In this document: piece by piece, positions 21,897-24,946 of the stretch | How the letters are laid out: each line of letters begins with the position of its first letter | Position numbering within the stretch: the stretch's first letter is position 1 | Source: Escherichia coli | GTDB taxonomy: Bacteria > Pseudomonadota > Gammaproteobacteria > Enterobacterales > Enterobacteriaceae | Direction: 5' to 3' (one strand) | NCBI RefSeq assembly: GCF_029227855.1 | Contig: NZ_CP074356.1 | Length of the DNA: 64,000 bases | Position numbers and translations under genes: made by a program | The notes under the pieces: model-generated | Database searches by the model: none | The model's input: only the letters and a program-made list of their open reading frames with translations | Told to the model about the DNA's origin: nothing

Positions 21897-21953
21897 GACG
21901 AGACTATCCCTTTAAAGTATGTTGTAACTAAGCAAGAGTTTGCGTCGTATTTG

Positions 21954-22784
21954 TTACGCGGAGCGAGACGCTGTCGCCCCTGCGCGTGGTGGCAGAGCAA
22001 ATGCCACCAGCGCCGGGATGAGATAAATAAACCAGACGGCGACTTCGCTGACACTTGGCGCTTCCTGATAGCCAAAAATCCCTTCCATCAGCGTGCCAAA
22101 CAGCGAGTGAGTTGAGAGCACCGCACTCATATCGAAGGCGATTTCCTGAAAGTGGTTCCACAATCCGGCTTCATGAAATGCGCGAATGGCACCAGCTGCC
22201 AGCCCAGCGGCGACGAAGAGAATAAACAGGCTGGTCCATTTAAAAAATGCACCAAGATTGAGGCGAATACCGCCCCAGTAGAGCAGGAAGCCGAGCACCA
22301 CGGCTGTAGCAAGACCGAGCATTGCACCCAGCGGCGGCCAGATCCCGACATCTTGTTGAAATGCCGCCAGCAGGAAAAAGACCGACTCCAGCCCTTCCCT
22401 TGCAACGGCAAAAAAGACCATCATCACCAGCGCCCAGCCATGATGATTTCCACGCTGCAATGCGCTATCGACTGCCTGCTCCAGTTGTACTTTGACGTTG
22501 CGCGACACTTTGCGCATCCAGAAAACCATCCAGGTAAGGATCACCACGGCGATCACCGCCACGATACCTTCAAACAGTTCCTGTTCTTTTTGCGGAAATT
22601 CGCCGGTGGTTTCGTTAATGAAGATACCCAAGCCCAGGCACAACGCAGCGGCAAGCAACACGCCAATCCACATCACACCAATCCATCGGCCTCGCTGGGT
22701 ACGCTTAAGATAGCTGGCAATCAAACTGACAATCAGCGCGGCTTCAAGTCCTTCGCGCAACATAATGAGAAATGGAACAAACAT
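21954..22784 (-). CDS. efeU: Ferrous iron permease EfeU (Ftr1 family), intact
   Basis: ORF 21954..22793; start at MFVPFLIML (276 aa); two REGLE motifs (MLREGLEAA, VAREGLESV). Confidence 0.9.
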   Translation of the reverse strand: MFVPFLIMLREGLEAALIVSLIASYLKRTQRGRWIGVMWIGVLLAAALCLGLGIFINETTGEFPQKEQELFEGIVAVIAVVILTWMVFWMRKVSRNVKVQLEQAVDSALQRGNHHGWALVMMVFFAVAREGLESVFFLLAAFQQDVGIWPPLGAMLGLATAVVLGFLLYWGGIRLNLGAFFKWTSLFILFVAAGLAAGAIRAFHEAGLWNHFQEIAFDMSAVLSTHSLFGTLMEGIFGYQEAPSVSEVAVWFIYLIPALVAFALPPRAGATASRSA

Positions 22785-22841
22785 GCCACCCACCCTTAAA
22801 CGTTTTTCTGAGTCAATCTATGCAAAGAAAAGTAAATCGCA

Positions 22842-22860
22842 GTGATAGCGATTATCATTA
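22842..22860. promoter_or_regulatory. Candidate Fur box in efeU promoter
   Basis: gtgatagcgattatcatta resembles the GATAATGATAATCATTATC consensus; about 60 bp upstream of efeU start. Confidence 0.6.
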
Positions 22861-23437
22861 CGGCAAAGAAAAATACAAGCGGAATGTTTATAAAATGATG
22901 TTGGAATGTAAACAAAGAGAGGTAATGCCAGGGGATATAAACGATTATTCCAGGTACAAAGATGGGATTGTTTACAACGAGCCATGTGTTCTTGCCAGAT
23001 GCCGCGTAAACGCCTTATCCAGCCGACAAAACTGTCCAGACTCAATGCATCAGAGCTTCCATGTAAAACTGATAAGCGGGTGTATCAAGCAATTTCGTCC
23101 ATCCGCGATTATCAAATCTAACTTTTTGCCCGGAACATAATAACAGCTCGGGTGTTGGTGGCGTCAAAGTCGCTGAAGCGTTCCCCGAAGGCCGGGGCAG
23201 CCCACATGGATGTGGGCTGAGGGCGCGTCTTACAGGACATTACCTCGCGCCCGACCCGGTAGCCGAAGGGGATAAGCTGAAGGTACCGCGCAGCGGCGAT
23301 TTTGTTCGCCAGAGCCCGGGGTGCAGGGGGTGGCGGCGATTGGCCGCCCCCTGCACCATTCAATTTATATGGCGAGGCACATTAAGGGAGCGCAACCCGC
23401 TGCTGAAGCCAAACAAAACCGCCGCAGGCTAAGTCCC

Positions 23438-24946
<1,509 letters not shown>

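Follow-up and report, generated by a model that had tools for sequence, protein, structure and literature searches.

A full-length TRIP1b copy, assigned by homology and position, between putP and efeU of Escherichia coli

The window analyzed here is a stretch of 64,000 nucleotides of Escherichia coli DNA (assembly GCF_029227855.1, contig NZ_CP074356.1). Within it, two neighboring genes on the minus strand, putP (23438..24946) and efeU (21954..22784; intact here, a pseudogene in K-12), flank a 254-bp element at 23143..23396 whose plus strand is G-rich; the sense strand of putP corresponds to its C-rich strand. The initial annotation had described a GC-rich, structured block between these genes, and this was borne out: G+C was 0.62-0.70 in 100-nt windows over 23150-23400, compared with 0.32-0.49 immediately upstream in the AT-rich efeU promoter region, and amounted to 63.4% for the element proper. 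The remark that the block is not a canonical REP copy also held, as no sequence similarity to REP was found. A separate REP-like unit lies close by, outside the element, at 22994-23024 (permissive Rfam scan).

Two palindromes had been proposed in this block, and both exist in a form other than that first described. The first, reported as a perfect 16-bp inverted repeat, was resolved by an inverted-repeat search into two 10-nt arms, CAGCCCACAT (23198-23207) and ATGTGGGCTG (23210-23219), with a GG spacer. The second is a real hairpin and ends 81 bp from the putP stop codon (23438), close to the distance originally given; its arms, GGTGCAGGGGGTGGC (23320-23334) and GCCGCCCCCTGCACC (23343-23357), are 15 nt long rather than 18, contain one G.T mismatch and enclose an 8-nt loop.

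These hairpins are parts of a larger predicted fold. With RNA parameters, the plus strand folded at -132.4 kcal/mol (z -4.8) and the minus strand at -119.1 kcal/mol (z -3.7), and none of 200 shuffles was as stable in either case. Folding with DNA parameters gave z scores of -5.25 and -4.37 for the plus and minus strands, respectively, again with 0 of 200 shuffles as stable on either strand. In plus-strand coordinates, a long-range closing stem is formed by a 5′ arm, TTGGTGGCGTCAAAGTCGCTG (23155..23175), that pairs with a 3′ arm, CAGCGGCGATTTTGTTCGCCAG (23291..23312), in both single-sequence and consensus folds; the 3′ arm includes an 18-mer that is invariant across all Escherichia full-length copies. 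Enclosed by this stem are the central hairpin, CAGCCCACAT-GG-ATGTGGGCTG (23198..23219), and a second internal hairpin (GGGCGCG ... CGCGCCC, 23221..23252) predicted in RNA, DNA and consensus folds. Beyond it lies the strong hairpin with the 15-nt arms (23320..23357), which was also recovered in RNA and DNA folds and overlaps a G-rich tract, GGGGTGCAGGGGGTGGCGGCG (23318..23338). A repeat search additionally detected an internal direct repeat on the plus strand, with copies GTTCCCCGAAGGCCGGGG at 23180..23197 and GTTCGCCAGAGCCCGGGG at 23304..23321, spaced 124 nt apart. Finally, alignment with other copies revealed an 11-bp deletion (CCCTGCGCGCT) at approximately 23354..23355, its exact place being ambiguous within a CCCTGC repeat. 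In the window copy this deletion removes the 5′ half of a terminal stem (the partner of GGAGCGC) and lengthens the strong hairpin by GGT/ACC.

The block had been labeled as being of unknown function. This label does not stand, since the sequence corresponds to TRIP1b, a catalogued repeat (PMC10888264), and its paralogs are characterized replication elements (PMC10287960, PMC11194060, PMC13308219). TRIP1 was catalogued by Rudd in 1999 and surveyed in 6725 genomes by Li et al. in 2024; its loci are named a (after aqpZ), b (after putP), c (after yohI/dusC), d (after alx) and e (after copA), and the K-12 TRIP1b copy occupies 1080855-1081000 (PMC10888264). Published TRIP1b lies 41 bp past the putP stop codon, and the same 41 bp separate the end of our element (23396) from the start of the putP stop (23438); the window element is therefore TRIP1b. 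Its flanking genes, putP and efeU, place it at one of the five fixed loci of the family. Alignments of copies bounded the homologous unit at about 23143 (ACAGCTCGGGTGTTGGTGG...) and 23396 (...GGAGCGCAAC). Identity was 89.5% over 267 nt with TRIP1a of strain VG1046, 85.7% over 265 nt with TRIP1c and 86-97% in full-length alignments with paralogs. Homology covered at least 80% of the length, G+C fell within 62-65%, and the predicted structure, at the plus-strand stability given above and with 77-78 consensus pairs, agreed with the stable "double-Y" fold of TRIP1. By homology and position, then, 23143-23396 is a full-length TRIP1-family copy at the TRIP1b locus. It differs from the published TRIP1b form, which is 146 bp long and lacks an internal 125 bp: the window copy is 254 bp long and the internal segment is present. 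Two older repeat names, RSA and Box C, were also considered, but the literature on them gave no help, and identity was settled by the TRIP1 paper (PMC10888264).

TRIP1a and TRIP1c are the same sequences as RRS-lysO and RRS-dusC, termed "replication risk sequences" by Pham et al. (2023, PMC10287960; 2024, PMC11194060), who state outright that RRS is TRIP1 and also mention "a third partial repeat" (PMC11194060). The window copy shares the 222-bp RRS core, with query positions 25-237 being 91-97% identical to the copies at lysO and dusC. The G-rich strand of RRS bears the G-quadruplex (G4) motif GGGGGTGCAGGGGGCGGCGG (PMC11194060), to which the G-rich tract of the window copy is homologous. Compared with this tested motif, the window tract differs at two positions (one G fewer and one C-to-T change). 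The corresponding 25-mer, GGGGTGCAGGGGGTGGCGG, had a G4Hunter score of 1.80 (RRS, 1.84; short form of K-12, 1.36) and was the top-scoring 25-mer within the 64-kb window. Thus, the window copy appears to keep an almost unchanged G-rich quadruplex/hairpin core, in which the quadruplex is predicted.

The suggestion that the block might be a remnant repeat element, to be checked by BLASTN as a dispersed repeat, proved correct with respect to dispersal. A megablast search with positions 23118-23400 against 5426 complete E. coli genomes returned matches in 5425 of them, at a median of 3 and a maximum of 8 places per genome. Paralogs occupied the aqpZ-lysO and dusC-yohP spacers and, in some strains, alx-sstT. 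Most catalogued E. coli copies are found at the five fixed loci, and some genomes have up to 10 places. Outside E. coli, Klebsiella chromosomes carried up to 13 copies, spread over unrelated loci and with one direct pair separated by 437 bp; the Klebsiella copies (~85% identical) surfaced only via chromosomes mislabeled as plasmids in a plasmid collection. An exact 18-mer scan of species-representative genomes gave true matches only in Escherichia TRIP1 copies, together with ~60 chance matches, and understates the distribution of the family, as the Klebsiella copies escape it.

The putP-efeU spacer is polymorphic. The full-length TRIP1b allele was present in 956 of the 5426 complete E. coli genomes (~18%), the short K-12-type form in ~2606, and the repeat was absent from ~1863. 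Among the repeat-free alleles are a 219-bp spacer of B2 type, which has a canonical putP terminator, and that of O157, which has an island gene. Approximately 351 of the 956 full-length genomes share the extra 11-bp deletion of the window copy; the same deletion was seen in one TRIP1d copy (Escherichia sp. MOD1-EC7003), and nearly all other copies are without it. The 146-bp K-12 copy has a 125-bp internal deletion that eliminates the first G-run and the greater part of the fold. Its junction lies within the internal direct repeats GTTCCCCGAAGGCCGGGG and GTTCGCCAGAGCCCGGGG, whose 124-nt spacing compares with the 125 bp deleted. Because the deletion endpoints fall in these repeats, short TRIP1b appears to have arisen from the long form by slippage, and the position of the junction favors this order. 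On the other hand, one TRIP1a haplotype (VG1046 type) nearly matches the full-length form throughout its interior, and gene conversion from TRIP1a may have given rise to the full-length allele. With about one-third of complete E. coli genomes lacking TRIP1b and about half carrying it with 125 bp deleted, we infer that this copy is dispensable. The published survey describes TRIP1b solely as the 146-bp partial form (PMC10888264), and a full-length, G4 motif-bearing allele at the putP locus is apparently the sole unreported point in our data.

A check of the palindromes by covariation across Enterobacteriaceae had also been proposed. A consensus fold was derived from 22 full-length sequences, all different, of E. 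coli, E. albertii, E. whittamii and two further Escherichia species. It contained 77 pairs, with 98.9% of cells paired, a value that dropped to ~44% when the 3′ partners were slid by 1-3 columns. Double changes that kept pairing occurred in 8 pairs, compared with 3.3 +/- 1.2 in column shuffles, and none of 500 shuffles reached the observed number. With a mean column identity of 92%, the Escherichia copies are close relatives, and their covariation alone is modest evidence. When Klebsiella copies were added, 15 of 78 pairs were compensatory; they fell in the closing stem, in the central and G-rich hairpins and in a terminal stem. In the closing stem, Klebsiella copies had U-A to C-G and G-C to C-G replacements (pairs 18/173 and 22/169). 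Three pairs of the central hairpin were double-changed in TRIP1d copies and one in Klebsiella, with pairing kept, and the second internal hairpin showed a compensatory G-C to A-U change in TRIP1d (pair 86/106). In the strong hairpin, C-G to A-U double changes were found in E1V33, E. whittamii and Klebsiella copies, and the stem was intact. The fold is thus conserved in both genera, and the compensatory changes in Escherichia and Klebsiella imply selection on it within the TRIP1 family. Covariation is blind to whether DNA or RNA folds and to which strand does so; shared pairs had 9 G.U and 5 A.C cells, each strand's own prediction recruiting its own wobble pairs. In one Klebsiella copy the hairpin was kept and the G-runs were broken, suggesting that selection may act on the hairpin and not on the quadruplex.

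What such a fold can do is known from the paralogs. RRS-lysO and RRS-dusC combine a G4 with stable hairpins, block DNA polymerases and trigger single-stranded gaps on the lagging strand (PMC10287960, PMC11194060). They are described as folding as single-stranded DNA at the unwound fork, with Pol I, II, III and IV blocked; stops of Pol I, II and IV at the RRS G4 motif were shown in vitro (PMC11194060). When an RRS lies on the template of the lagging strand, the polymerase skips and leaves a gap of a few hundred to ~2000 nt that is occupied by SSB and RecA, and both proteins are found over up to 2 kb of lagging-strand template beside the RRS at any placement in that orientation (PMC11194060). 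Deletion of both RRS was impossible without a compensating 200-kb amplification, and K-12 has a conditional need for at least one of its full-length copies (PMC11194060). With an RRS inverted, the RecA/SSB peak was missing in vivo, viability was still supported and supercoiling was altered (PMC11194060). In a single-molecule preprint (Kusi-Appauh et al. 2026, PMC13308219), the G4 strand as lagging-strand template produced gaps at nearly every passage, and the C-rich strand in the same role produced gaps in ~66% of passages, of about half the size (~325 nt), in vitro.

The window copy is oriented differently from this pair. Within the element, the plus strand of the window is the G-rich one; its counterpart in K-12 is the minus strand at 1.08 Mb, which belongs to the right (clockwise) replichore. 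GC skew of the window plus strand is -0.028 over the whole window. The G-rich strand is therefore the leading-strand template here, whereas in RRS the G4 strand is the lagging-strand template. Moreover, RRS form a symmetric inverted pair ~650 kb from dif, and the window element is a third copy. Arithmetic on K-12 map positions, with a position of dif that we assume, would put TRIP1b ~0.5 Mb from dif. Strain 7/2 (NZ_CP023820.1) matches the window exactly at the TRIP1b locus; its TRIP1a and TRIP1c are oriented as in K-12, and its TRIP1b points the opposite way, ~190 kb to the terminus side of TRIP1a and inverted to it. The canonical RRS pair is present separately in this genome. Since both of these features, template strand and symmetric pairing, differ from those of the tested RRS, we regard the element as an RRS homolog, not a demonstrated RRS.

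The weight of such arguments is limited by the behavior of the family itself. Inverted TRIP1a was found in 1295 of the 5426 genomes (24%) and inverted TRIP1c in 2000 (37%), with both inverted in E. coli E69. Relative to the upstream gene, K-12 copies are co-oriented with dusC and alx and antisense to aqpZ and putP, and orientation also flips between alleles of one locus. Orientation relative to the fork is thus not strongly conserved in the TRIP1 family, and any inference from orientation is weakened accordingly.

Taken together, the full-length, undeleted TRIP1b of the window, homologous to RRS and in the "inverted" configuration, probably serves as a dispensable extra copy. Under this interpretation, passage of a clockwise fork would use the G-rich strand as leading-strand template and expose the weaker C-rich strand on the lagging-strand template. 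With its G-rich strand on the leading-strand template, the copy should act like the experimentally inverted RRS: it would be able to fold and impede polymerases, weak gaps or none would be expected, and it may take over the conditionally essential function of RRS. It may also do nothing detectable, given that inversion of RRS left no RecA/SSB peak in vivo. The two differences in the G4 tract also speak against an active copy, as does the 11-bp deletion, which reinforces the competing hairpin and takes away the terminal stem. In addition, 250 bp of inverted homology to RRS-lysO at a distance of ~190 kb would provide a substrate for chromosomal inversions. TRIP1a/1b rearrangements are on record (PMC10888264).

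The best surviving alternative, which we consider possible but clearly less probable, is that the element is an inert leftover, one more selfish or neutral dispersed repeat of the MITE or REP type that contributes locally only homology for recombination. The polymorphism of presence, absence and deletion at putP-efeU, the occurrence of both orientations at the same locus, the high copy number at unrelated loci in Klebsiella with its pair 437 bp apart, and the 11-bp deletion of the window copy would all be expected of such a repeat. However, neither terminal inverted repeats nor a target-site duplication was found, and comparison of filled and empty alleles revealed replacement of the whole spacer with non-homologous flanks instead of a clean insertion. 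A MITE was rejected on these grounds: terminal inverted repeats (sought in alignments, by eye), target duplications and clean empty sites were not seen at three loci. Compensatory substitutions, which indicate that the fold is selected in the family, and the conditional essentiality of at least one full-length copy in K-12 also argue against inertness.

A function at the 3′ end of the putP mRNA, in which hairpins of the C-rich strand stop or stabilize the transcript in a REP-like manner and replace a terminator, seems unlikely. It was one of the options raised at the outset, as a putP 3′-UTR structure or 3′-derived sRNA, together with the observation that the T-tract typical of an intrinsic terminator is missing. 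The latter observation is correct for the putP (minus) strand; the sole terminator-like match at the element is on the plus strand, where a hairpin is followed by a poor T-run (ATTCAATTTA). The repeat begins 41 nt past the putP stop with no T-tract terminator between, and the very stable minus-strand RNA fold (-119 kcal/mol, z -3.7) would suit such a role. Alleles of the locus point in the same direction: a repeat-free one (SaT040) has a textbook intrinsic terminator right after putP and repeat-bearing ones are without it. Nevertheless, orientation with respect to the upstream gene varies between loci and flips between alleles, and a 3′-UTR role therefore cannot be the function of the TRIP1 family. 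In addition, no Rfam family corresponds to such a structure, and a transcript of this kind was not described in the literature searched. Given that the sequence is catalogued as TRIP1b, that its paralogs act as folded single-stranded DNA and that orientation is inconsistent, we do not favor the 3′-UTR or sRNA options; a local side-effect of the repeat on putP 3′-end formation is possible.

It is more doubtful still that full-length TRIP1b constitutes a natural third RRS, with polarity opposite to that of the canonical pair. A site on the plus strand 1.2 kb from the repeat, TTAAAGTATGTTGTAACTAAGCA (21912..21934), is a perfect match to the Ter consensus GNRNGTTGTAAYKA; we take it to be TerE, its name and polarity being assigned on our assumption about the E. 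coli Ter sites. TerE presumably blocks forks of the one direction that makes the G4 strand of TRIP1b the lagging-strand template. If so, only a counter-clockwise fork that had moved past the terminus and through Tus-TerE would use this strand as its lagging-strand template. The copy might then mark or relieve such escaped forks, or reshape supercoiling and back up RRS function, in the ~18% of E. coli that carry it, and the inversions of TRIP1a (24%) and TRIP1c (37%) would represent a population-level polymorphism in programmed-gap sites.

An independent sRNA gene on the G-rich (plus) strand, ending at the strong hairpin followed by AUUCAAUUUA, appears very improbable. The conserved fold with covariation, the terminator-like match on the plus strand and an AT-rich, weakly conserved left flank are compatible with such a gene. 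In contrast, scanning of 22700-23600 on both strands revealed no promoter-like site, and a permissive scan of Rfam 15 found no credible family, the best overlaps (15-18 bits against a threshold of 80; E 2.8-6.6) being no better than noise. The T-run is poor, the flanks are locus-specific, so that no shared promoter travels with the element, and published work accounts for the fold at the DNA level.

An 81-aa protein encoded by the overlapping minus-strand ORF (23118-23363), already judged non-protein-like in the initial annotation, can for practical purposes be dismissed: every copy has open frames of 78-89 codons and PGAP sometimes annotates a hypothetical protein here, but the longest open frame shifts strand and frame among copies, 1-nt and 11-nt indels separate them, no Pfam match was found and long open frames are expected at 63% G+C. 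Another small ORF past the 3′ end (...AGGAGCGCAAC, RBS-like and followed by ATG in some copies) was also rejected, as its 3 and 12 codons are unrelated in the copies that have it and it is absent in the window.

With the assignment to full-length TRIP1b as our preferred interpretation, the element can be compared with known systems. K-12 TRIP1b has the same locus, upstream of efeU/ycdN, and the same orientation and b-specific 5′ and 3′ segments, but is 146 bp long with a 125-bp deletion, whereas the window copy has 254 bp, is undeleted in this part and has its own 11-bp deletion near the 3′ end. RRS-lysO and RRS-dusC form the same helices, are homologous across the whole 222-bp core and score nearly alike in G4Hunter (1.84 versus 1.80). 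They differ from the window copy in two bases of the G4 motif, in the template strand (G-rich strand as lagging- versus leading-strand template) and in placement (symmetric, 650 kb from dif, versus a third copy), and the window copy is dispensable in nature. REP/BIME elements are likewise GC-rich, intergenic and palindromic, follow genes, and can stabilize mRNA 3′ ends and serve recombination; however, REP units are ~35 bp long with hundreds of copies, whereas TRIP1 is ~265 bp long with 3-8 copies, and the two have no sequence similarity. Among bacterial sequences, the pilE G4 of Neisseria gonorrhoeae is the sole other case for which gap formation via a G-quadruplex has been reported; it has no sequence relationship to TRIP1, is much shorter and functions in antigenic variation by recombination. 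ERIC/IRU and other enterobacterial MITE-like repeats are also structured, intergenic, 100-300 bp long and variable in copy number by genus; no terminal inverted repeats or target duplications were found for TRIP1, and we take its sequence to be unlike that of ERIC/IRU.

As a discovery the finding is small and its substance is already known, since the family was catalogued in 1999 and surveyed in 2024, the locus has been described and the replication function of the paralogs is published. Nonetheless, a specific and testable mechanism replaces the label "unknown function." The "partial third repeat" of K-12 would have arisen by slippage deletion from an element that ~18% of complete E. coli genomes still carry at full length, its G4 core nearly intact. 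To date, RRS have been studied genetically in K-12, whose TRIP1b is crippled; in strains with the full-length allele, the lysO/dusC pair may not be conditionally essential. Finally, the full-length TRIP1b and the common inversions of TRIP1a and TRIP1c call into question how strictly the orientation and position of RRS are conserved.

Orientation of the repeat varied at both RRS loci, i.e., TRIP1a between aqpZ and lysO and TRIP1c between dusC and yohP. Orientations were compared between segments from VG1046 (L002) and K-12 (L008) for the former locus, and between E69 (L042) and K-12 (L009) for the latter. Of 5426 complete E. coli genomes, 1295 carried TRIP1a flipped with respect to aqpZ, and 2000 carried TRIP1c flipped with respect to dusC. 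These flipped alleles had flanks of their own and were also detected in other Escherichia species. Both copies were flipped in E. coli E69, and thus the G-rich strand is the leading-strand template at both loci in this strain. It has been reported that the sequence and positioning of RRSs are highly conserved, a statement with which the orientation polymorphism of TRIP1a and TRIP1c sits uneasily.

We also examined the surroundings of TRIP1b (23143-23396) in the putP-efeU spacer. A REP-like palindromic unit, GCCAGATGCCGCGTAAACGCCTTATCCAGCC (22994-23024), partially and weakly matched naRNA4, a family derived from REP elements (27 bits, E 0.02), and the spacer segment of about 530 bp containing both this unit and TRIP1b was missing in the repeat-free allele. 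The spacer of one strain carrying this allele, SaT040 (segment L098), was 219 bp long and had a canonical intrinsic terminator directly after putP and on its strand (GCAGAGGGCAATC...GATTGCCCTCTGC followed by T6; about L098 2440-2480). In O157:H7, an unrelated 447-aa gene adjoins putP instead. On the other side of the spacer, efeU (21954-22784, minus strand) is intact in the window genome, whereas it is a pseudogene in K-12. Beyond efeU, at a distance of 1.2 kb from TRIP1b, the efeO-efeU spacer contained a perfect Ter site, TTAAAGTATGTTGTAACTAAGCA (21912-21934, plus strand). This site is TerE, and its orientation is the one that blocks forks heading to higher window coordinates.

An 11-bp deletion, CCCTGCGCGCT, was identical in TRIP1b of the window (at about 23354) and in TRIP1d of Escherichia sp. 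MOD1-EC7003 (at about 14150 of segment L082), probably reflecting recurrent slippage between CCCTGC repeats. At the place occupied by TRIP1d in BL21, the alx-sstT spacer of K-12 (L010 1547-1944) contained some 210 bp of another repeat, which is short and GC-rich (CCCTCTCCC...GGGAGAGGG...GGGGTGAGGG) and occurs about six times per genome; the BL21 and K-12 alleles had no common sequence from the alx stop codon to the sstT promoter region.

Several PLSDB "plasmid" records were whole chromosomes, including CP125156.1 (5.37 Mb), NZ_CP134663.1, NZ_OL790696.1 and NZ_CP141089.1. One such chromosome, of E. coli from a gull, had 10 places matching the TRIP1 repeat, more than any genome of the complete-genome set.

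In Klebsiella (K. pneumoniae and K. aerogenes; segments L099-L102), the TRIP1 family occupied up to 13 places per chromosome, at loci unrelated to those of E. coli (near pcaC, sitD, ybhB-proY and yfaE-glpQ). One spacer contained a direct pair of copies 437 bp apart (L099 1064-1285 and 1501-1722). In the K. aerogenes copy located after sitD (L100 1495-1762), both long G-runs were broken (GGGAG and CAGAGGG), and the C-rich arm had a matching change, CCCTCTG, opposite CAGAGGG, so that the corresponding part of the hairpin was preserved. Judged from this sequence, the broken G-runs together with the retained hairpin hint that selection may maintain the hairpin rather than the quadruplex.
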